Shown: positions 17,998-27,002 of the stretch, one piece after another
How positions within the stretch are numbered: the first letter of the stretch is position 1
How the letters are laid out: each line of letters begins with the position of its first letter
From: an uncultured Vampirovibrionales bacterium
GTDB lineage: Bacteria; Cyanobacteriota; Vampirovibrionia; Vampirovibrionales; Vampirovibrionaceae
Reading direction: 5' to 3'
DNA length: 64,000 bases
Assembly: GCA_964390635.1 (NCBI GenBank)
Contig: CAYMIG010000004.1
Coordinates: 1,057-65,056 of the forward strand
Notes under the pieces: generated by a model
The model's input: only the letters and a program-made list of their open reading frames with translations
What the model was told of the DNA's origin: nothing
Database searches by the model: none
Translations under genes and position numbers: made by a program

Positions 17998-18432
17998 TTA
18001 CAAGCGCCTTTTTTTCTCGTCCAGACCGGACTTCCAAAAGAGCCAAACGCCCACAGTAAGGTACATCAGGAAAAGCAGGGCGATCCCGCTGCCCCAGGGC
18101 ATGCCCGTCACATGCCAGGCCTTGCCCTGCTCGGCGGCAATCAGGCTATAGACGGCCAGGAGGATCATGTAGGGCCCCAGCCAGGAGGGGGCAATGAAGG
18201 TGATGGCCAGCGCCGCCAGGTACTCGGCAAACAGCAGCACGCCGTAAGCGGGCCACACCACGTCGGAGGCGGAGAAGGGATTGTGCATCAAACCGGACAG
18301 GGTCAGGGGCAGGGCGCACATGGTGACAAACAGGAAGCCGAACAGGATGAGGGTCCAGAACTCGGCAAAAATCCATTTCATGCGGCCGCCGGGCCGGCTG
18401 ACATCAAAGACCTGGTGGTGGTGATCCGCCAT
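17998..18432 (-). CDS. Hypothetical multi-TM membrane protein, last gene of the respiratory operon
   Basis: AGAGGAG RBS; about four hydrophobic segments. Confidence 0.75.
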   Translation of the reverse strand: MADHHHQVFDVSRPGGRMKWIFAEFWTLILFGFLFVTMCALPLTLSGLMHNPFSASDVVWPAYGVLLFAEYLAALAITFIAPSWLGPYMILLAVYSLIAAEQGKAWHVTGMPWGSGIALLFLMYLTVGVWLFWKSGLDEKKRRL

Positions 18433-18570: not shown

Positions 18571-19014
18571 TTAATCCTTGCTGGCCTTGGCCGCAACGGG
18601 CTTGGCGGCGGCAGGGGGTTCCATTTTGCGGCAGCGGGCGGCAAAATCGTCCACCATGTCCTTCAGCTTGTCATACTCCAAGGCAGACAGCCAGTAGGCC
18701 TCCACCCGTTTCTTGTCCACATTGGGCTTCAGCTTGGGCATACGCTTGCCCAGCAGGCGTTCCCGGCAGAACTTGTTGCCTTCGCGGTAGTGGCAGTCCC
18801 CAATGCGGCAACCCAGGGCAAAAGTGCCGTCGGCCCCATTTTTCAGTGCGGTTTCAAGCATAATGGGCTGGATTTGACCGCTGCAAGGCACCTTGATGAT
18901 TTTGACTTCCGGATTGTCGGCCAGATAGCCGTTTTCATCCAGCTTGCCTTCAAAATCCACGCTGCGTTCGCAGACGATGCCAATCAGTTTGACTTTGCGA
19001 TCTTCAGTGGTCAT
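18571..19014 (-). CDS. MvhD/FlpD-type [2Fe-2S] protein (hydrogenase delta subunit family)
   Basis: GIVCE, IKVPCSG, GADG, GCRIGDCHYREGN and WLSALE are MvhD hallmarks. Confidence 0.92.
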   Translation of the reverse strand: MTTEDRKVKLIGIVCERSVDFEGKLDENGYLADNPEVKIIKVPCSGQIQPIMLETALKNGADGTFALGCRIGDCHYREGNKFCRERLLGKRMPKLKPNVDKKRVEAYWLSALEYDKLKDMVDDFAARCRKMEPPAAAKPVAAKASKD

Positions 19015-19026
19015 GGGTTGGTTTCC

Positions 19027-20160
19027 TTATGACGAAGGGGCGAGCAGGGCGGCCTCGATTTCTTCGAGCACCGTGCCGGTTTCCCGCCGAGGGATTTCGA
19101 TGGCCTTGAAGGCGCAGGCGCCGACGCACAGGCCACAGTTGGCGCAACGACCCGCATCCACCACGGCCAGCCGCTTGAAGCGGGTGCCGTCGTTACCCCG
19201 ATCCACCATGGTGATGGCCTCATAGGGGCAATCGTGGTAGCACAAAGAGCAGCCGGTACAGTTTTCACGCACCACTTGGGCGTACTGGCCGCGCAGGGCC
19301 TTTTTCTGGATGTAGGGCAGCGCCAGCAGCAAGGCCGGGATGATGGCAATCACCACCAGGCAGATGAAGGCGGGGTTCATGCCCTCCACCGCCACCAGGT
19401 ACTGGGGCCAGGTGTAGAGCATATCGAAGTCCACCGCGGCGGCGGTCAGGGTCAGGTCAGGCTTTTGGCCCAGTCCCACCGGGTTCATGGCCGAAACTAC
19501 GAACAGGCCGCCGGTCAGCATGGCAATCAGCGGGCCGGGGGGCTCGGAGACCGGGCGGGTGATGCGCAGGTAATGCAGCCACAGCATAAACATCATCAGC
19601 AGCGGAATGCCCAGGTGCAGGAACAGGAACCGGGTGAGCGTGTAATCGGTAATGGTCTCCCCGGCCAGCAGGAACTCGGCCAACCCCTGGCCGACCCAGG
19701 GCATGGCTTTCAGGGAGTTCACGGTAATGTTGGTCAGGGTCACGGCCTCCTGGTCCCAAATCATCAGGTAGCCGCTGAGGCCGATGATGTAGGTGATGCT
19801 CAACAGGATAACCCCGGTAATCCAGGGCAGAATGCGGTATTCGCGGTAGCGATCGGTAAACCACACCCGGGCCATGTGCAGCAGCACGAAAATCATCATG
19901 CCGTCCCCGGCATAGCGGTGCACGGAGCGGAACAGGTTGCCAAAGGGCAGGTCGTAGGTAATGTAGCGCACGGTTTCGTAGGCCGTGGCCAGGGTGGGCT
20001 GGTAGTAGGCAAACAGCAGCAGCCCGGACAGGAACAGGGCCCAGATGAAGAAATTGGGCAGGGCGCCGTGGTAGTAGAAGGGGTTGTACTTCTGGGAGAA
20101 GACCGCGTTGAGGCCTTTTTCAATCCACAAGGTCGCTTTCTGTAACGGTTCGGTATACAC
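19027..20160 (-). CDS. Cytochrome b (bc/b6 type, four His) fused to a C-terminal 2x[4Fe-4S] ferredoxin
   Basis: RSVHRYAGDGMMIFVLLH and TRFLFLHLGIPLLMMFMLWLH; then CTGCSLCYHDCP and CANCGLCVGACA. Confidence 0.92.
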   Translation of the reverse strand: MYTEPLQKATLWIEKGLNAVFSQKYNPFYYHGALPNFFIWALFLSGLLLFAYYQPTLATAYETVRYITYDLPFGNLFRSVHRYAGDGMMIFVLLHMARVWFTDRYREYRILPWITGVILLSITYIIGLSGYLMIWDQEAVTLTNITVNSLKAMPWVGQGLAEFLLAGETITDYTLTRFLFLHLGIPLLMMFMLWLHYLRITRPVSEPPGPLIAMLTGGLFVVSAMNPVGLGQKPDLTLTAAAVDFDMLYTWPQYLVAVEGMNPAFICLVVIAIIPALLLALPYIQKKALRGQYAQVVRENCTGCSLCYHDCPYEAITMVDRGNDGTRFKRLAVVDAGRCANCGLCVGACAFKAIEIPRRETGTVLEEIEAALLAPSS

Positions 20161-20171
20161 GGGTCGGCTCC

Positions 20172-20447
20172 TTACTTCTTGCTTTCCTCATCCCCGGCGG
20201 TCACGAGATCGTTCTCGTAGCCCAGCAGGATGTAGGCGATACTGGCACCCAGCAGGGCCAGGCCCATCGCCCAGGAATAAGACTTGAGACCCACGATCAT
20301 GCGGGTCAGGATGGCGGGATCGCCCTTATCCATCGAGGTCTGGTAGGCATTGCCGACCACGGCGGTCTCGGCGTTGAACATGAAGTACACCCCCCCGGCC
20401 AGGGCCGCCAGGGCAATCAGGACAGCAAGTATCTCGCGGGGTTTCAT
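20172..20447 (-). CDS. Small two-TM membrane protein in the respiratory operon
   Basis: MKPREILAVLIAL...; ATG overlaps the stop of the upstream gene (ATGA). Confidence 0.75.
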   Translation of the reverse strand: MKPREILAVLIALAALAGGVYFMFNAETAVVGNAYQTSMDKGDPAILTRMIVGLKSYSWAMGLALLGASIAYILLGYENDLVTAGDEESKK

Positions 20448-20752
20448 GGCGTTGTCGAACCTCCAGACCGATCTCCGTACTGACGGCGGTATGCCCACTC
20501 AAACAGCCTCACCGGCCGGTGAACCTTGCCGCGCGTCCTCTCCTTGACATAGCTATCATACATTAAAACCGCCATCACCAGAACCAGCAGCACCGTGGCT
20601 CCCAGCCAGGGCAGCAACCGGGCCGGCTCCGGGGCGGCAAAAAAGGCCCGGGAGGCGTCGAACCACAGAGACATGCCATAGGTGGCCCCCAGAAACAGCA
20701 GCCACCATACCGGGGCGCTAAGCGGCTTGATTTGCGTGCCTTCCACCATCAT
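20444..20752 (-). CDS. Small two-TM membrane protein in the respiratory operon
   Basis: Two hydrophobic helices; start overlaps the cytochrome b stop. Confidence 0.75.
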   Translation of the reverse strand: MMVEGTQIKPLSAPVWWLLFLGATYGMSLWFDASRAFFAAPEPARLLPWLGATVLLVLVMAVLMYDSYVKERTRGKVHRPVRLFEWAYRRQYGDRSGGSTTP

Positions 20753-22317
20753 ACCGCCGGAGCTCCCTCAAGCTGGCCGGTGGCTTGGCGTTCTTCCCGC
20801 TCCCGGCGATCCAGCCAGAACAGGAAGCCGGCCACCAGCAACTGCAGTCCGGCATAGGTAAACCACAGCAGGCTCCAGTACCAGTTGGTCCAGTTGATGG
20901 CTTTGACCACCCCATCGGCATCCACCAAGCCGGCAGCGGTCATGGCCGCCTGGTAGTGCTCCGGGTTAAACATCATCTGGAACCAGGCCACCAGGGTGCT
21001 GCCCCCAAAGGCGTAGGCGTTGGTGGTTTCGTTCATCAGGGCCGGGTTTTCCACGATGTGATGCCAGAAGACCAGGTACCAGCCGCTGGTCACCAGGTTA
21101 AACAGCATCCAGAAGGTGAGCGGCAGGCGTTGCTTATACAGCCCCCAGTGCCAGAACTGGCCGATGGTGATCATCAGGATCATGTGGGCGTACCAGTAGG
21201 GGGGATCGGTCTCGATGTTGGCCATGTTGGCGATAATCAGGGCCGAGAACACCACGAACTCGATGGCGGCCATAATGCCGATAGTGGTGAAAATGGGCCG
21301 CCGCCAGGGGCTCTTTTCGGGACCCCAATCCAGGAAGGTCAGGCCGATGGTCACAAACGGGATGCCCAGCGTCCAAATGGTGGCCCAGTAGGGATCCATG
21401 TATTTGAGCAACTGGTACAGGGCCAGGAAGTACCAGTCGGAGAGGATGGGCAGGGGGGTGACTTCCGGGTTGGAACGGCTGCCCGACTCGGCGGGGAAGA
21501 TGATGGCCACGAACGTGAGCATCACCAGCATGGCCACCACGGCGCCCCGTTTCAGGTTCAACCGCTTCAGGCGGTTCTGGTAGAAGTAGATCTCCGACAG
21601 CACCAGCAGGATGAGGGAAAAGGCAAAGTGCAGGGAGTAGAACCGGGTCATGGTGGCCTGCCCGATGGAGCTGCCCCCCATCAGGATCTGGGAGGTGCTG
21701 AAGCCCTGGTGGGTCAGGTTGCCCACCAGCTTGGTCACCGCGCCAATGGCGTTGGGAATCAGCCAGGATCGCTTGTAGTTGGCAAAATCCCACGGCCAGG
21801 CCCAGCTGGCCGGGGTGATATCCAGGTAGGTGGGGAAGGTGGCGAAGACCTTGGTCGCCCAGAAGGCCCGCTGGTTCCAGATGAGCAGGTACCCGGTGAG
21901 GCCGGAGTACATGGCGATGACCAGCAGCAGGATGGCCAGGATAAAGGTCAGCTCGCCCTTGTTCTTGTATTCCGCGGCAAACCACATGCGGTACACCCGC
22001 AGGGTGGCGGCAATAATCATGGCGTCCCCGCTGTACTTGTGCATCCCGCGCAGGACGGAGCCCAGCGGGGTGTGGGAAAGCAGGTTGATGGAGTTATAGG
22101 CCTGGCCGGTGGTCGGCAGGTACAGGGCCACCAGGATGACGCCGCTGATGAGCACCACCATCCAGGCCAGGTAATACATGCCACCCAGCTGGTACCAGGG
22201 CGATTCCGCCTGCTGCTCCACCTTGGTCTCGTCAAAAAGGTCGATTTTCTGGATACGGTCCATCACCCAGGTCTTGGCGTCATTGGCCATGGCCATAGGG
22301 CTGCGAGCAAAAGCCAT
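20749..22317 (-). CDS. Cytochrome b (b6 plus subunit IV fused) retaining only the bL His pair, with extra C-terminal helices
   Basis: LRGMHKY...TLRVYR, GYLLIWNQRAFWA, TRFYSLHF...EIYF, PILSDWYFLALYQLLK, PWRRP. Confidence 0.9.
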   Translation of the reverse strand: MAFARSPMAMANDAKTWVMDRIQKIDLFDETKVEQQAESPWYQLGGMYYLAWMVVLISGVILVALYLPTTGQAYNSINLLSHTPLGSVLRGMHKYSGDAMIIAATLRVYRMWFAAEYKNKGELTFILAILLLVIAMYSGLTGYLLIWNQRAFWATKVFATFPTYLDITPASWAWPWDFANYKRSWLIPNAIGAVTKLVGNLTHQGFSTSQILMGGSSIGQATMTRFYSLHFAFSLILLVLSEIYFYQNRLKRLNLKRGAVVAMLVMLTFVAIIFPAESGSRSNPEVTPLPILSDWYFLALYQLLKYMDPYWATIWTLGIPFVTIGLTFLDWGPEKSPWRRPIFTTIGIMAAIEFVVFSALIIANMANIETDPPYWYAHMILMITIGQFWHWGLYKQRLPLTFWMLFNLVTSGWYLVFWHHIVENPALMNETTNAYAFGGSTLVAWFQMMFNPEHYQAAMTAAGLVDADGVVKAINWTNWYWSLLWFTYAGLQLLVAGFLFWLDRREREERQATGQLEGAPAV

Positions 22318-22973
22318 TACGCGATCCCTCCCGCTTCCAGCTTGGTAATCACCAGGTTGCCGCCCTCGATCTTGGCCTCAAACTGGCGAGGGGGACGAGG
22401 CGCCGGGCCGCTGACCACCTTGCCCCGAATGGGCTTTCCTTCCACCACCTGGGTTTGCAACGGATCATACACGCTCAAGTGGCAGGGACAAGCAAACAGG
22501 GGGTTCTTGGCCCCCGGGTAGTTGTAGGCAGCCGCCTCCGCCGGATCGGGCAGGTAATTAAACACGCAGCCCATGTGCGGACAAATGCGGTTGACGATGA
22601 TGAAGTCCTTGGCCGGGTCCACCGGGGGGCCTTCGGACAGGCGCACCGCAAAGCCGGGAATTTTGGACACCTGGAAGTTGCGGAAGGTGTACTCCTTGCT
22701 GCGTTGGCCAAAGATGAAGGGCTGCGCCGCCCAGCGGGCGGGGAACAGGGACAGGGGGATGATTACGTCCTCCTCCCGCTCCGGCATATCCGGCGGGGAG
22801 AACAGCCCACCCTTGCCCTCCCAGGCGATGGGGGCCTTGGAGGTGTCGATGCGGGTCGTGCTCAAGGGCCCAGAGGAAGGCCGCAGGTAACGGAACAGGG
22901 GCGAAACAAACAGGGCCAGGACGCCCAGCACGGGCAGGCTCACAATCAGTTTCAAAAAGTCGCGTCGGTTCAT
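22317..22973 (-). CDS. Rieske [2Fe-2S] protein of a cytochrome bc complex
   Basis: Tat-like NRRDFLK; CPHMGC and CPCHLSVY boxes; SGPAPRP. Confidence 0.95.
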   Translation of the reverse strand: MNRRDFLKLIVSLPVLGVLALFVSPLFRYLRPSSGPLSTTRIDTSKAPIAWEGKGGLFSPPDMPEREEDVIIPLSLFPARWAAQPFIFGQRSKEYTFRNFQVSKIPGFAVRLSEGPPVDPAKDFIIVNRICPHMGCVFNYLPDPAEAAAYNYPGAKNPLFACPCHLSVYDPLQTQVVEGKPIRGKVVSGPAPRPPRQFEAKIEGGNLVITKLEAGGIA

Positions 22974-22981
22974 AACTGGCT

Positions 22982-24148
22982 TTATCGACCTCCTTGATCG
23001 GCAGGCGTTTGCTTAGAGACCGGCTCCTCGCCCTTGCGGCTCTGGAAGGTCATGCCGCCGGTGACGTCATAGCCTTCCGGCATCTTGGGAGCCACCCAGG
23101 GGCGGCCATCCGGGCGATTGGCTTCCATCATACGGGTCCAGGGCCGGTTGGTCGGTACCAGACCACAAGATTGCAGGGATTGCAATCCGGCAGGCGGGGT
23201 ATCCGGGTTGAAGCCCAGATCCTTGTGTTCGGCGGCCAGCTTTTTCTGGAGATCCTTCAGGTCGTTGACGTAGGAGAAGCCCCGCACGTAACGCACCAGG
23301 TTCCAGATGAGCTTGTGGTCGAAGACGTACTGCACTTCCAGCTGCTGGGTCTTCTCGTTGGGCACGTAGTTCACGTTGCCGTACCAGGCGGGCATGGCCG
23401 AGGGGTAAATGCCTTCGCAGACATACTTGAAGATCTGGGCATCGGTACGGTTGTACATGCGCCGGAAATCATCGAAGCGGGCCGGTGCGGGCAGCAGGTC
23501 GTTGTGCAAGGGGGCGTCATGCAGGTGGTGATCGCCGGTTTTGCCCACATGCAGGGGCCCGTCGGCATGGCCGCGCTTGCCATGGCACACCGCGCAGTTG
23601 CCGCCAAAGATGTTGGCCACTTCCGGCGAGGCATCGTTGGGCTTTTGAATGTCCCCGGCCCCGGCCAGGTAGCGGGTATACATAATGACCGCCCAGCGGT
23701 CGTCACGGCTCATGTTCTGGCGGAAGCGCATAGGCTGGCCGTCTTTGCCCAGGTGGGCCTTGGGGAACACCGCCCGGCGCTGTTCGGTGGGCATCACCAC
23801 CGCCGGGGTCTCGCCCCGGGACAGGAACAGGTAGTAATCGATGGGGGTGGAGTAGGCCATGTCCTCCTTCACCTTTTGCTGTTGCCAGTAGCTGTTGGTG
23901 TGGCACTGGATACAGTTGTTCTGGAAGGCGTGGTAACCCTGGGACAGGGGCAGGGGGTTGGGAGGGAAGGCAAAATCGTCTTCCGCCAGCCGGGCGTCCA
24001 CCACCGGCTCACTGGTCACGTTACCCCGGGGCTGGATGTTCGATTCGGTGCTACAGCCGCCCAGGGCGAGGGCAGACAGCACAAAACCCGCCACCAGCAG
24101 CCGCGGCATCCAGCGAGGGGTCTGTAATGAGGTTTTCGGCAGGTCCAT
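22982..24148 (-). CDS. Lipoprotein diheme cytochrome c
   Basis: Lipobox ALGGC; CIQCH and CAVCH; SAMPAW as a candidate axial Met. Confidence 0.88.
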   Translation of the reverse strand: MDLPKTSLQTPRWMPRLLVAGFVLSALALGGCSTESNIQPRGNVTSEPVVDARLAEDDFAFPPNPLPLSQGYHAFQNNCIQCHTNSYWQQQKVKEDMAYSTPIDYYLFLSRGETPAVVMPTEQRRAVFPKAHLGKDGQPMRFRQNMSRDDRWAVIMYTRYLAGAGDIQKPNDASPEVANIFGGNCAVCHGKRGHADGPLHVGKTGDHHLHDAPLHNDLLPAPARFDDFRRMYNRTDAQIFKYVCEGIYPSAMPAWYGNVNYVPNEKTQQLEVQYVFDHKLIWNLVRYVRGFSYVNDLKDLQKKLAAEHKDLGFNPDTPPAGLQSLQSCGLVPTNRPWTRMMEANRPDGRPWVAPKMPEGYDVTGGMTFQSRKGEEPVSKQTPADQGGR

Positions 24149-24361: not shown

Positions 24362-24532
24362 CTATTCTTCATCCCGCAGCATGCGGTACTTGGAGTCTTC
24401 CAGATCGGCCAGCTTGCCGGTTTTAGAGGCCCAGAACATCCCGCCAAAGGCGATCAGGAAAAACAGGCCGCAAATGGCGAAGGCTGCGATATAACCGGGG
24501 CCAATCCCTCCGGACAGGCAGGACGGGCACAT
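24362..24532 (-). CDS. ccoS: CcoS/FixS-like cbb3 oxidase maturation protein (56 aa, not in the ORF track)
   Basis: MCPSCLSGGIGPGYIAAFAICGLFFLIAFGGMFWASKTGKLADLEDSKYRMLRDEE*; matches the FWAxxxGxxxDLExxxxRxLxD pattern; start overlaps the ccoO stop. Confidence 0.75.
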   Translation of the reverse strand: MCPSCLSGGIGPGYIAAFAICGLFFLIAFGGMFWASKTGKLADLEDSKYRMLRDEE

Positions 24533-25569
24533 CAGTGGCGCCCTCCGCCGTACACGTAACGGCTGTCACGGTGCAACTGGTCCAGCTCCTCGATTTGGTT
24601 GTAGTTTTCAGACATCATGTCCGGATCATCCAGCTGGCTGTACTTCACTGTTTCAATAGCCGCCGCCGGCTCAATGCCATCGGTGGGCAAGGTTTTCAGG
24701 AAGGCCACCAGGTAGGCCATTTGCTGCTCGCTGAGAGAGCGCTCCCAGCGGGGCATGCGGGTGCCGGCCACCCCTTCCTTGACCCGCCAGTACCACATGG
24801 AATCCTTGTAGGCCTTGTAGAAAGGACGGGTAAAGTTGGCGGGCTTTTTCAGCATGGTGGCGCTCATGGGCCCGTTGCCGCGGCCGGTCACGCCGTGGCA
24901 CACCGCGCAGTTCTGCATGAAGATGCCCCGGCCCGAGTTGGCGATGGCCGCATCGTTCACCGGCACCTTTTCGGAAATGCGGGCCCACTGGTCCCGAAGC
25001 TCTTGAGGGGCCTCAATCCAGGTAATGGGTTCTTTTTCCCATTCGGAGTTTCCGTGGGCGGCCTTTTCACCGGCTTGGCGGCGCACGCCCCGGCGAGCCA
25101 CCAGCTCCCGTTCGCGGCCCAGGGTTTGCAGGTAGGCGATGAGATCACTCATGTCCTCATCGGAGAGATAGCTGAAGGAGGGCATCAGGGAGCCCGGCTT
25201 CACCGCGCGGGGCTGGGTGTGGTGGGCCCAGTGCCAGGCATCGGGGTACTTGCCGCCGATATTGGAGAGATCCGGGCCAGTCCGCTCGGTACCCAGCAGG
25301 TGGGGAGTCTCATGCACGTAGTCACCGGCAGCCACCATCTCGCCCATCTCCCGGTCCTGGTAGCGCACAAACTGGGTATGGCAGTACACGCAGCCCTCCC
25401 GGCGGTAGACTTCGCGCCCCCGCAGCTCCTTGGGGGTATACACCGTGGCCGCGGCGGAGGCTTCCGGCTGGAAGGTGGTGGCGGGCAGGATGGCCGTGAC
25501 AAAGATGATGGTCAAGAAGATCAGGGCCACAAACAAGCCGGCGATGTAGTAGTTGAATCTGTTGTCCAT
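24532..25569 (-). CDS. ccoO: cbb3-type oxidase subunit II (CcoO) fused to a second cytochrome c domain
   Basis: GREVYRREGCVYCHTQFVR, GTERTGPDL and SLMP; second heme site CAVCH with TRMP. Confidence 0.92.
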   Translation of the reverse strand: MDNRFNYYIAGLFVALIFLTIIFVTAILPATTFQPEASAAATVYTPKELRGREVYRREGCVYCHTQFVRYQDREMGEMVAAGDYVHETPHLLGTERTGPDLSNIGGKYPDAWHWAHHTQPRAVKPGSLMPSFSYLSDEDMSDLIAYLQTLGRERELVARRGVRRQAGEKAAHGNSEWEKEPITWIEAPQELRDQWARISEKVPVNDAAIANSGRGIFMQNCAVCHGVTGRGNGPMSATMLKKPANFTRPFYKAYKDSMWYWRVKEGVAGTRMPRWERSLSEQQMAYLVAFLKTLPTDGIEPAAAIETVKYSQLDDPDMMSENYNQIEELDQLHRDSRYVYGGGRH

Positions 25570-25595: not shown

Positions 25596-27002
25596 TTAAA
25601 CATAGGCGATCCCGGTGGGAGACTCGGGGGCAGGCTCAGCCTGGTCCGAAAACACCGTCTTGTAGATGTTCACCATATAGAGCACCGAGGCGGCCACGAT
25701 CATCACCCCGGAGATCCAGCGGACGATGAAGTAGGGCACCATCTCCATGACCAGCTGGTCGTAAGGCAGCGTGAAGTGCCAGCCCGCCGCCTGGATGAGA
25801 CCGGCAATGGTAAGCGAAATCATCATGATGATCCACCCCAGGAAGGCCAGCCAGAAGTGCCAGATGGCCAGGGCCCGGCTGTAGATTTTGCGCCCGGTGA
25901 TCTTGGGGATGATGTAGTAGGAGGCCGCAAACACAATGAAGGTGAAGGTGGCCAACAGGGCCATGTGGGCGTGGGCCACCACCCAGTTGGAGAAGTGCAG
26001 GTACCAGTTGATGCCCCGGGTGGCCTGGAAGGGCCCCTGGATACAGGTCAACAGGTAGGCCAGGCCGGAGGCCATGGCAAAGCGCATGGGGATATGGTCC
26101 ACCATCAGGTGCCACTTGCCCTTCAGGGTCATAAAGAAGTTGGTCAACACCGTGAGCACCGGAATCAGCAGGAAGACGCTGGAAATGACCGCAATGGCCT
26201 TCAGCCACTCCGGCACCGGCGATTGCAGAATGTGGTGGGTGCCGGTGGGCGCATAGAACATACCAATGGTCCAGAACCCGATCATGGACAAAGTGTGGGA
26301 GTAAAGCGGGTTGCCGGAGAAGCGGGGCAGCAGGTAATACAGGATACCCACCCCGCCCACGGTAAACCACATCCCCAGTATGTTGTGCCCGTAGAACCAG
26401 CCGGCGATGGCGTCATTCAGGCCGGTAAACTGCACAAAGGCCCGGTTGCCAATCAGGTACACGATGGGGAACCAGAACAAAGCCCCCATAAAGTACCACA
26501 GGCTGACGTACCACTTTTTCTCGGTGCCGGTAAAAACGGTCATATACACGTTCAAGCCGGTCATCAGCAGGGCAGCCAGCACCAGCCAGTCGTAGATCCC
26601 GTTCAGCTCGGCATATTCCCGACCCTCGGTAAAGCCGTTCAGGATGCCCCACACCCCGAAAAAGATGGTAAAGTTCCAGGCCACCATGGTGATATTTCCC
26701 AACATCTCGCTCCACATGCCCTTGCGACCGGCCAGGACCGGTACAATATAGAACATGCAGGCCACATACCCCATGGACAACCAGCCAACCAGCACCGTGT
26801 TGGTATGGGCCGGACGCAGCCGCCCAAAGGAGAGCTGGGGAATGCCATGGATGAGATCCGGGCTGGACATGAGCGACGCCGCCAGCAGGCCGAAGCCGGT
26901 GCCCAGCACCAGGTAGAAAATGGCACAAATCAGGAAATTGCGGCTGGCGCTATAGGGCTCATTGCTGAAAACGGCCCGCCAGGCTTGAGTGAGAACTTGC
27001 AT
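25596..27002 (-). CDS. ccoN: C-family (cbb3-type) heme-copper oxygen reductase subunit I
   Basis: GRLRPAHTN, REYAE, WFYGHN, FYAPTGTHH (helix VII Tyr), WVVAHAH, HFWL. Confidence 0.95.
   Translation of the reverse strand: MQVLTQAWRAVFSNEPYSASRNFLICAIFYLVLGTGFGLLAASLMSSPDLIHGIPQLSFGRLRPAHTNTVLVGWLSMGYVACMFYIVPVLAGRKGMWSEMLGNITMVAWNFTIFFGVWGILNGFTEGREYAELNGIYDWLVLAALLMTGLNVYMTVFTGTEKKWYVSLWYFMGALFWFPIVYLIGNRAFVQFTGLNDAIAGWFYGHNILGMWFTVGGVGILYYLLPRFSGNPLYSHTLSMIGFWTIGMFYAPTGTHHILQSPVPEWLKAIAVISSVFLLIPVLTVLTNFFMTLKGKWHLMVDHIPMRFAMASGLAYLLTCIQGPFQATRGINWYLHFSNWVVAHAHMALLATFTFIVFAASYYIIPKITGRKIYSRALAIWHFWLAFLGWIIMMISLTIAGLIQAAGWHFTLPYDQLVMEMVPYFIVRWISGVMIVAASVLYMVNIYKTVFSDQAEPAPESPTGIAYV

Follow-up and report, generated by a model that had tools for sequence, protein, structure and literature searches.

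Two Cytochromes b in One Operon

The 64,000-nucleotide stretch of DNA analyzed here (the window) is part of contig CAYMIG010000004.1 of an uncultured Vampirovibrionales bacterium (GCA_964390635.1). It contains two unlike cytochrome b genes within a single respiratory operon on the minus strand. These are designated CytB1 (20749-22317) and CytB2 (19027-20160), and both open reading frames (ORFs) lie where an initial annotation of the window had placed them. What can one respiratory chain do with two different cytochromes b? The initial annotation proposed a heterodimer, in which CytB1 oxidizes quinol and the low-potential electron crosses to CytB2. It appears that the two proteins probably do work as an asymmetric pair. 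Their cofactor sites are complementary, CytB2 has relatives that are fused to their iron-sulfur partner, the gene order is conserved, and the two genes occur together.

Heme Ligands and Quinol Site of CytB1

CytB1 (522 residues; PF00033, PF13631, and PF00032) is a fusion of the b6 and subunit-IV parts with a variable C-terminal extension. It was matched to solved cytochrome b6 by HMMER (1vf5_A, E 4.1e-24). The second His of helices B and D are the established ligands of heme bH (or bn). CytB1 keeps the first His of each helix (H93 and H230), and 14 residues further on it has Arg (R107) and Tyr (Y244). In the alignment to b6, R107 and Y244 face the second His of helices B and D. The ligand positions given in the initial annotation are thus borne out, as are the codons for R107 (21997-21999) and Y244 (21586-21588), which follow by arithmetic from the residue positions. 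The motif PILSDWYF, which resembles that of a quinol oxidation (Qo) site, was also found as described, at residues 290-297.

Relatives of CytB1 were found through a pattern scan of genome contigs at the species level, with one genome per species. Of 276 relatives, the best 80 were kept, which are the window and 79 other loci. For the conservation counts, stop-to-stop ORFs had minimum lengths of 400 residues for CytB1, 330 for CytB2, 120 for the MvhD-type protein, and 180 for the Rieske protein encoded beside them. Shorter ORFs were dropped as fragments at contig ends. The initial annotation had allowed that orthologs might mostly retain His at the two altered sites. None do: His occurs at neither position in 80/80 sequences, with 0/80 having it at 107 or at 244. 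Position 107 is Arg in 59 and Lys in 21 of the 80, and position 244 is Tyr in 58 and Arg in 22. Arg is present at both positions in 13/80, and Lys107 is combined with Arg244 in 9/80. A nearer set of 30 sequences, taken from genomes of relatives at 57-82% identity, has Arg (27) or Lys (three) at position 107 and always Tyr at 244.

The remaining sites of CytB1 are strictly conserved. H93, H230, E242, and LSDWYF are each present in 80/80 sequences, and H93 and H230 are the only invariant His among 72 aligned sequences. In the same 72, the cd1 stretch W147-K156 is nearly all invariant, so that both marks of a Qo site, a PEWY-type motif and a conserved cd1 helix, are found in CytB1. A decayed or non-functional CytB1 was ruled out, since 72-80 sequences of 39-82% identity all keep H93, H230, E242, LSDWYF, and the cd1 helix. 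Arg does not normally ligate heme. A second heme held through residues 107 and 244 appears very unlikely because Arg is present at both in 13 sequences.

The part of CytB1 beyond helix H (window 20749-21100, the C-terminal 120 residues) is poorly conserved and highly variable in length. The whole protein has 441-640 residues across lineages, a variation also seen at loci L044, L097, and L133. In loci of the Obscuribacterales type, the C-terminal part is approximately 100-150 residues longer.

CytB2 and Its Iron-Sulfur Partner

CytB2 (377 residues, GTG start; PF00033, E 1.1e-31) retains all four His at the same spacing, as the initial annotation stated: H81, H95, H182, and H196. Each of these aligns to a His of b6 (HMMER, 1q90_B, E 1.5e-29). 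All four, and an extra His, H31, are present in 74/74 sequences of the CytB2 family. Only the bL pair of the four His on helices B and D is found in CytB1, whereas CytB2 has the full set throughout. As read from the alignments, the four-His rule of Rieske/cytochrome b complexes holds only for CytB1 and CytB2 taken together, and this pattern of cofactor sites is family-wide and not due to chance.

The Qo site is distributed in the opposite way. Where a PEWY-type motif is expected, CytB2 has DFDMLYTW (residues 244-251), and a profile-profile alignment placed F245-D246-M247-L248 opposite S293-D294-W295-Y296 of CytB1. Judged by these residues, the Qo motif of CytB2 is degenerate (FDML in the window). 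In its cd1 region, only W135 and D136 are invariant. The motif on the positive (P) side of the membrane goes from xDWFY-like in Obscuribacterales and Caenarcaniphilales to FD[LM]LY in Vampirovibrionales.

Two features near CytB2 were overlooked in the initial annotation. The first is a Fer4 domain with two [4Fe-4S] clusters (2x[4Fe-4S]) at residues ~292-354, as identified by Pfam Fer4 families. The eight Cys of its cluster motifs are invariant in 72 aligned sequences. An AlphaFold2 (AF2) model of CytB2 has six long membrane helices and a mean predicted local distance difference test (pLDDT) score of 83.3, with low confidence in the Fer4 part. The N-terminus of cytochrome b is cytoplasmic. Because the model has six membrane helices, the Fer4 domain is predicted to be on the side of the N-terminus, that is, the cytoplasmic side. 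The second feature, directly 3' of CytB2, is a gene for an MvhD/FlpD-type [2Fe-2S] protein (18571-19014; PF02662, E 4.3e-24), the sole FlpD match in the genome. The four Cys typical of FlpD, C15, C44, C69, and C74, are present in 72/72 sequences and are presumably the [2Fe-2S] ligands, as in Mvh-Hdr structures. No gene for an HdrA-like flavoprotein or an Mvh hydrogenase was found in the operon; the genome as a whole was not searched for HdrA or hydrogenase genes.

Features of the b6f and Firmicute b6c types were not found. The Cys of heme ci/cn is present in neither protein, as had been noted: the position of b6 Cys35 is Gln43 in CytB1 and Tyr30 in CytB2. In addition, CytB1 is unsplit (PF00033 and PF00032), and there is no extra residue in helix D. 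The helix-D His positions are 14 residues apart in both proteins, as in the bc1 type, and the HMMER alignment of CytB2 to b6 contains a one-residue gap. In the alignment to b6, His31 of CytB2 (20068-20070) is one residue past the heme-cn Cys position, in a pocket on the negative (N) side. Possible roles are ligation of quinone or of an extra heme, or contact with the Fer4 domain.

Gene Order and Co-occurrence

The gene order CcoN, CcoO/P-like, dihaem cytochrome c, Rieske, CytB1, two small membrane proteins, CytB2-Fer4, and MvhD recurs in Vampirovibrionales, Obscuribacterales, Caenarcaniphilales, and Acidobacteria. The best 80 of the 276 CytB1 relatives include Vampirovibrio chlorellavorus NCIMB 11383 (L056), Holophagaceae, Solibacteraceae, other Acidobacteria, and two metagenome-assembled genomes (MAGs) labelled Gammaproteobacteria. 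Synteny was counted over the 79 loci with a full CytB1, limited to those with enough flanking sequence. A Rieske ORF is upstream of CytB1 in 75/75 loci with at least 0.9 kb upstream, and a CcoN homologue in 61/61 loci with at least 6 kb upstream. CytB2-Fer4 and MvhD are downstream in 68/70 loci with at least 3 kb downstream. In the two exceptions (L073 and L074), the CytB2-Fer4 and MvhD pair is on another contig of the same genome.

Across 301 genomes of the class, 160 gave a match to CytB1 and 159 to the C-terminal half of CytB2. When cross-tabulated by hand, 155 have both, five have CytB1 only, four have CytB2 only, and 137 have neither. All nine discordant genomes come from fragmented assemblies, with 80-770 contigs each. 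In each of the four that have only CytB2, 0.4-1.3 kb separates the gene from the contig end that faces the expected place of CytB1. No complete genome with just one of the two genes was found among the 301 sampled.

Where relatives lack the module, their genomes encode an ordinary cytochrome b of approximately 370 residues, which adjoins an ordinary Rieske gene in eight of ten loci examined; a Rieske ORF was not detected at the other two, L035 and L053. These proteins had been candidates for CytB2-like genes that stand alone, and this was rejected, as they are ordinary cytochromes b without Fer4. A third type of cytochrome b, of 634-640 residues, is present in some relatives (L040:426-2327 and L041:8454-10373). 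Its N-terminal part is like ordinary cytochrome b, and it has a long C-terminal extension. A Rieske ORF adjoins it at L040, and none was detected at L041.

The acidobacterial loci (L084-L131; Holophagaceae and Solibacteraceae) have a second FixO/c-like ORF in place of the dihaem cytochrome c. Their CytB2 has 410-425 residues, and position 244 of CytB1 is Arg, not Tyr. From these differences in the cytochrome c ORF, in CytB2 length, and at position 244, it appears that the module diverged as a whole after it had crossed between phyla.

Predicted Pairing of the Two Proteins

The pairing of CytB1 with CytB2 was modelled by co-folding residues 1-410 of CytB1 with CytB2 and three hemes, with 72-row alignments as input. 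The interface score (ipSAE) was 0.70, 0.73, and 0.70, and three controls each gave 0.00. The mark applied to such scores was attained by 58/80 solved complexes and by 2/110 mismatched pairs. The runs share at least 95% of their contacts, and the pLDDT of the partner is at least 76. The predicted interface joins residues 56-72 and 220-249 of CytB1 to residues 43-63 and 166-205 of CytB2. Helices A and D of one chain are thus placed against helices D and A of the other, which is the helix A/D geometry of solved cytochrome b dimers.

Origin of CytB2

A search of 1.84 billion cluster representatives with CytB2 gave 298 matches at E <=1e-30. The matches that are not orthologues mostly have 490-790 residues and share 30-36% identity across residues 6-372 of CytB2. 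Ten of the 150 representatives listed were scanned for domains. Eight of these have FlpD/MvhD (PF02662) behind Fer4, one is a fusion of SCO1, cytochrome b, and Fer4 (P0182), and one is CytB2-like. The fused proteins are from MAGs of Deltaproteobacteria, Nitrospira/Nitrospirota, and Nitrospinae/Nitrospinota, and in NCBI they carry the name "hydrogenase iron-sulfur subunit."

Of 87 fused sequences, 86 have the four His; the remaining one is truncated where its contig ends. These proteins have an intact P-side motif, xDW[FYW][YF]L, with its Asp in 86/87, and position 31 is Leu in 81/87. CytB2 and MvhD have the features of this family in split form: the four-His core, two membrane helices, the 2x[4Fe-4S] domain, FlpD, and an oxidase as neighbour. 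A link to a heme-copper oxidase operon was seen for the CytB2 subfamily as well as for the fused family. At the fused loci, the order on the same strand is COX2-like, COX1-like, SCO1, and the fused gene, often followed by hemerythrin. Among 80 such metagenome loci, SCO1 is present in 57, COX1-like in 47, COX2-like in 29, and hemerythrin in 24. No Rieske or CytB1 gene was found within up to 8 kb at these 80 loci.

A FastTree tree of the four-helix core separated CytB2 and the fused family from CytB1 and the canonical cytochromes b, with a support of 0.978. This unrooted tree contained 90 sequences and 181 columns; the sequences were 24 of the 80 CytB1, 24 of the 74 CytB2, and 30 of the 87 fused proteins, each evenly spaced, and 12 canonical (ordinary) cytochromes b of relatives. 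A recent duplication as the source of CytB1 and CytB2 was ruled out by this split. Because of it, the pair is best described, as far as the sequences go, as a cytochrome b-FeS-MvhD module recruited by a Rieske/cytochrome b complex. The fusion also argues, by analogy, that CytB2 and MvhD are one electron-transfer unit, in which MvhD would dock on the Fer4 domain, because both are one polypeptide in the related family.

The fused family (L144-L223, for example L171:4731-10400) is apparently undescribed, and its COX1-like protein is divergent. Many of the fused proteins have an extra C-terminal part of approximately 200 residues with no Pfam match. CtaA and Crp-type regulators are encoded near the fused loci, and several loci have two tandem copies.

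Operon and Respiratory Context

From the ORF list and a Pfam scan, the operon is a tight row of minus-strand genes that spans 27002 to 17998 and is followed by rpsP. The first gene (25596-27002) encodes a CcoN-like subunit I of a heme-copper oxidase of the C-family (PF00115, E 3.6e-80). It is followed by a CcoO/FixO-like monohaem subunit (24532-25569; PF02433 FixO, E 1.2e-35), which is kept in related loci and is fused to a second cytochrome c domain (PF00034/PF13442, residues 210-294). By these Pfam matches, the features of a cbb3-type (C-family) oxidase, the COX1 fold of CcoN and a FixO/CcoO monohaem subunit, are present. The next gene (22982-24148; PF13442 and PF00034) encodes a dihaem cytochrome c with two CxxCH motifs in its translation. 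It is a candidate for the cytochrome c subunit of the bc part.

The Rieske [2Fe-2S] protein (22317-22973) has a twin-arginine N-terminus, MNRRDFLK. Its PF00355 match (E 0.0015) is below the Pfam cut-off, at 18.9 versus 20.3 bits. The ligands C131, H133, C136, C162, C164, and H165, arranged as CxH and CxCH, are present in 78/78 sequences. Box II has the form CPCH[LF]SV[YF], and the window has CPCHLSVY (22476-22487). In the operon Rieske proteins, the residue two past the cluster His is Ser in 78/78, and the residue four past it is Tyr in 62 and Phe in 16. Eight ordinary Rieske genes of relatives were checked, and the residue two past the His is Gly in seven and Ser in one (L038). Ser at this place is known to raise the Rieske potential. 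This is suggestive only, and may mean a higher-potential Rieske center beside a menaquinone pool.

Two small membrane proteins are encoded between CytB1 and CytB2. The first, sm1 (20444-20752), has 102 residues and is hydrophobic; the second, sm2 (20172-20447), has a likely ATG start at 20447, and its mechanical ORF starts at a GTG at 20498. Neither has a Pfam match. Overlaps of start and stop codons chain Rieske, CytB1, sm1, and sm2: the TAA stop of Rieske overlaps the ATG of CytB1 (TAATG), the TGA stop of CytB1 overlaps the ATG of sm1 (ATGA), and the stop of sm1 overlaps the ATG of sm2 (ATGA). BLAST homologues of sm1 are located between CytB1 and CytB2 in Vampirovibrionales loci. In other lineages, small hydrophobic ORFs are present at both places in 6/6 loci examined, and those at the sm1 place (91-144 residues) have a similar EEK-containing stretch, as judged by eye. 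A 144-residue membrane protein without a Pfam match is encoded 3' of MvhD (17998-18432). Its homologues were found only in part of the Vampirovibrionales loci, and its membership in the complex is uncertain. A conserved partner gene downstream of MvhD was rejected, as 0/6 loci examined have one.

The rest of the genome, which is 95% complete, gives some indication of the surroundings in which the operon works. No cytochrome b other than CytB1 and CytB2 was found in it, and the module is its sole cytochrome bc complex. Two PF02621 matches (MqnA/MqnD family) were found, and no MenD above the cut-off, which suggests that menaquinone is made by the futalosine route. NuoH is present (C7:37572-38615), and there is no NuoF (PF01512) match in the genome at this completeness. 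This suggests a complex I without its NADH module. No SCO1 (PF02630) match was found in the genome either.

Proposed Electron Path and Alternatives

In quinol oxidation at Qo, one electron goes to the Rieske cluster and the other to heme bL. The operon would encode a combined complex III-IV module with an obligate heterodimer as its cytochrome b core. CytB1 and the single Rieske protein would hold the sole working Qo site, together with heme bL. From Rieske, the high-potential electron would pass through the cytochromes c to the cbb3-type oxidase and O2. Without bH, CytB1 could not by itself pass the low-potential electron on. CytB2 would provide bL' and bH', and the electron would move from bL of CytB1 to bL' of CytB2 and then cross the membrane to reach bH'. 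There, on the cytoplasmic side, this heme would be wired to the two [4Fe-4S] clusters of CytB2 and the [2Fe-2S] cluster of MvhD, and it is likely that it exchanges electrons with this three-cluster arm. In the preferred account, a soluble acceptor of single electrons, for example ferredoxin, would receive the electron from the arm, in place of or in addition to its recycling at a quinone reduction (Qi) site. Such an exit would be a quinol-based bifurcation pulled by the oxidase.

This path, from Qo over bL, bL', and bH' and out through the arm of an obligate heterodimer, is given a somewhat better than even chance of being right. It is favored because Qo and bL of CytB1 are strictly kept and bH is gone, and because CytB2 always accompanies CytB1 and has bL' and bH'. 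Heterodimerization and the bL-to-bL' step are inferred, and it is speculative which way electrons flow in the arm and what accepts them. Exit is favored because CytB1 must be drained from the P to the N side, and because the arm is tied to an oxidase able to pull, also in relatives without a Rieske protein. The oxidase linkage of the CytB2 and fused families fits because an oxidase would supply the high-potential pull.

The heterodimer of the initial annotation, with quinol oxidized by CytB1 and an electron path over bL, bL', and bH', has gained from the ligand loss, the synteny, the co-occurrence, and the interface, although the binding is a prediction. It needs three corrections. With the 2x[4Fe-4S] domain on CytB2 and MvhD behind it, it is improbable that the chain just stops at Qi of CytB2. 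CytB1 and CytB2 are not sister paralogues, as CytB2 groups with the fusion family and CytB1 with the Rieske-linked cytochromes b. Relatives of CytB2 also occur without CytB1 or a Rieske protein, which keeps a reading with two separate complexes alive.

Several points weigh against the preferred account. The evidence for the complex is of sequence and prediction. The pairing score is compatible with a heterodimer and may echo the family, because cytochrome b homodimers have been solved. A unit of the CytB2-MvhD type can, by the sequence evidence, be autonomous because its fused relatives occur without a nearby Rieske or CytB1 gene, and CytB2-MvhD is unlinked from CytB1 in two genomes. The invariant His31, specific to CytB2 and on the N side, could mark a quinone-reduction site. 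Ordinary [4Fe-4S] clusters are often more negative than bH, which would favor inflow to bH'. Finally, the operon contains no gene for an acceptor of MvhD electrons.

Some of these points are shared by a rather unlikely alternative, in which the same heterodimer carries out an ordinary Q cycle. It would have one Qo site in CytB1 and one Qi site in CytB2, and the arm would be an entry port through which a cytoplasmic reductant such as ferredoxin reaches bH' and Qi. A similar entry, from stromal ferredoxin to heme cn, has been proposed for b6f. The evidence for a heterodimer applies here equally, and transfer from low-potential clusters to bH' would be thermodynamically downhill. Entry is favored because cluster potentials are usually low and because the N-side His31 is specific to the subfamily: it is present in 74/74 CytB2 sequences versus Leu in 81/87 fused ones, so that the subfamily paired with CytB1 gained it. 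NuoH without a NuoF match may also mean that ferredoxin is a main carrier. The Qi residues of bc1 include a His five past the second helix-D His and an Asp at the start of helix E, but these have no counterpart among the invariant columns of CytB2. An ordinary Q cycle would also leave unexplained the invariant arm and its tie to an oxidase operon, including in relatives without CytB1. The menaquinone route, NuoH without NuoF, and the Rieske Ser fit exit and entry alike. Exit and entry both require a CytB1/CytB2 heterodimer core, which is quite likely when the two are taken jointly.

It is unlikely that the operon encodes two separate complexes, a Rieske/CytB1 homodimer without a working low-potential chain and a CytB2-MvhD unit that would do the work of its fused relatives, for example moving electrons between the cytoplasm and the periplasm to serve the oxidase or the assembly of its copper or heme. 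The grouping of CytB2 with the fused family and not with CytB1, and its separation from CytB1 in two genomes, are what this would predict. The same is true of the fused relatives, which stand with COX2-like, COX1-like, and SCO1 genes and no Rieske or CytB1 gene (SCO1 in 57/80 and COX1-like in 47/80 loci), and of P0182, in which SCO1 is itself part of the fusion. However, this genome has no SCO1 match, and a CytB1 homodimer would contain two bL hemes and no exit, so that Qo would stall or use bypass reactions. The bL ligands and Qo motif of CytB1 are nonetheless kept in 80/80 sequences, and no complete genome was found with one gene alone. The decay of the P-side motif of CytB2 from xDWFY to FD[LM]LY would also be expected if CytB1 took over quinol oxidation. 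It is scarcely credible that CytB1 is complete by itself, with a second heme held through Lys/Arg107, Tyr244, or other ligands and CytB2 functionally unrelated. Tyr and Lys are heme ligands in other proteins, and position 244 is Tyr in 58/80 and position 107 Lys in 21/80. Against this, 13/80 sequences have Arg at both positions and 9/80 have Lys with Arg, and H93 and H230 are the sole invariant His among the 72 aligned.

The heterodimer with an exit through the arm has a far-reaching variant, which is doubtful. In an oxidase-pulled bifurcation, the branch through Rieske, cytochrome c, and O2 would drive the other electron over bL, bL', bH', and the three clusters onto a cytoplasmic ferredoxin. 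By way of NDH-1, which appears to lack its NADH module in this organism, the ferredoxin could feed back in, so that the Q cycle would be extended. Fused relatives without a Rieske protein, in the oxidase operons of Nitrospirota, Nitrospinota, and Deltaproteobacteria, would use their own oxidase in the same way. If true, bifurcation would be a route to reduced ferredoxin for those aerobic or microaerobic bacteria that require it, for example for a reductive tricarboxylic acid (TCA) cycle.

Comparison with Known Systems

To our knowledge, all cytochrome bc1 and b6f complexes described so far are symmetric homodimers. The need for electron crossing between the two bL hemes has been debated for decades, on the basis of engineered mutants. 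Here, it appears that the crossing has been made obligatory by nature. If confirmed, the complex would allow the bL-bL bridge to be tested in a natural system that has three b hemes per dimer, and it would be built from two different cytochrome b lineages. The module may also represent a Q-cycle enzyme that hands its low-potential electron to cytoplasmic iron-sulfur carriers. It occurs widely in Acidobacteria and in aerobic relatives of cyanobacteria that do not photosynthesize, among them the cultured Vampirovibrio chlorellavorus. Because of this distribution, and because it is the sole bc complex here, it bears on how that lineage acquired aerobic respiration.

The division of labor proposed in the initial annotation was believed to be undescribed, and the literature search agrees: in the main texts covered, no cytochrome b lacking bH and paired with a cytochrome b-Fer4/MvhD was found. 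Likewise, neither the fused family nor a bc-type cytochrome b with a Fer4/MvhD arm was found to be described in the literature searched. The accessible parts of papers on Nitrospira (PMC6606698) and on NOR diversity (PMC11214002) contain nothing on the fused family. The initial annotation also referred to a Melainabacteria complex III-IV operon with two cytochrome b-like genes. The sole hint of this in the literature searched is the accessible text of a preprint (10.1101/531145), which mentions a "complex III-IV operon" with "two cytochrome bc oxydases," citing its reference 6, presumably Soo et al. 2017.

The MvhD of Mvh-Hdr is a [2Fe-2S] connector, and QmoC and the HdrE/NarI types couple a dihaem cytochrome b to cytoplasmic Fe-S proteins. 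These Qmo/Hdr-type modules have cytochromes b of the NarI/HdrE type and no Rieske protein or Qo site, whereas the cytochromes b here are of the bc1/b6 type, with a single FlpD/MvhD match in the genome. The fused family is like CytB2 in its 30-36% identity, four His, Fer4, MvhD, and oxidase operon. It differs in its intact P-side motif, in Leu31, and in having no Rieske or CytB1 gene adjacent.

An anammox (Kuenenia) Rieske/cytochrome b complex has an NAD(P) oxidoreductase subunit, and its low-potential electron was proposed to go to a cytoplasmic acceptor and not to Qn (10.1101/2025.06.25.661457). The likeness, as far as the accessible text of that preprint goes, is an extra redox subunit on the cytoplasmic side of a Rieske/cytochrome b complex. 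The anammox complex, however, has a flavin/NAD(P) subunit and multihaem cytochromes c in that text, whereas the complex described here would have a ferredoxin-like domain and MvhD, no flavoprotein, and a cbb3-type oxidase. The accessible part of that source mentions neither a second cytochrome b nor one that lacks bH (10.1101/2025.06.25.661457).

Known bc1 and b6f complexes are homodimers in which each cytochrome b has bL, bH, Qo, and Qi, according to the accessible sections of a review (Chem Rev 2021, PMC7908018). The module resembles these canonical complexes in its Rieske protein, b6-like fold (Foldseek and HMMER), SDWY Qo motif, c-type cytochromes, and predicted helix A/D interface. It differs in that the sites are split over two unlike proteins, in its N-side iron-sulfur arm, and in having no ci/cn Cys; three b hemes per dimer, not four, are expected from the ligands. 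In bc1 dimers, the bL hemes are near enough to each other for transfer that is relevant to catalysis, and the bL-bL bridge sustains catalysis in cross-inactivated enzymes (PMC7908018, section 3.3). In engineered Rhodobacter bc1, either cross-inactivated or with fused b-b subunits, the electron goes from Qo through bL-bL to bH and Qi of the other monomer, and the enzyme still turns over, as covered in the accessible text of the review (PMC7908018; see also Czapla et al. 2013, PMC4330944). The electron path of these enzymes is the same as the one proposed here. They are mutants of a symmetric enzyme, whereas the pair of CytB1 and CytB2 is natural, occurs in at least two phyla, and combines two cytochrome b lineages.

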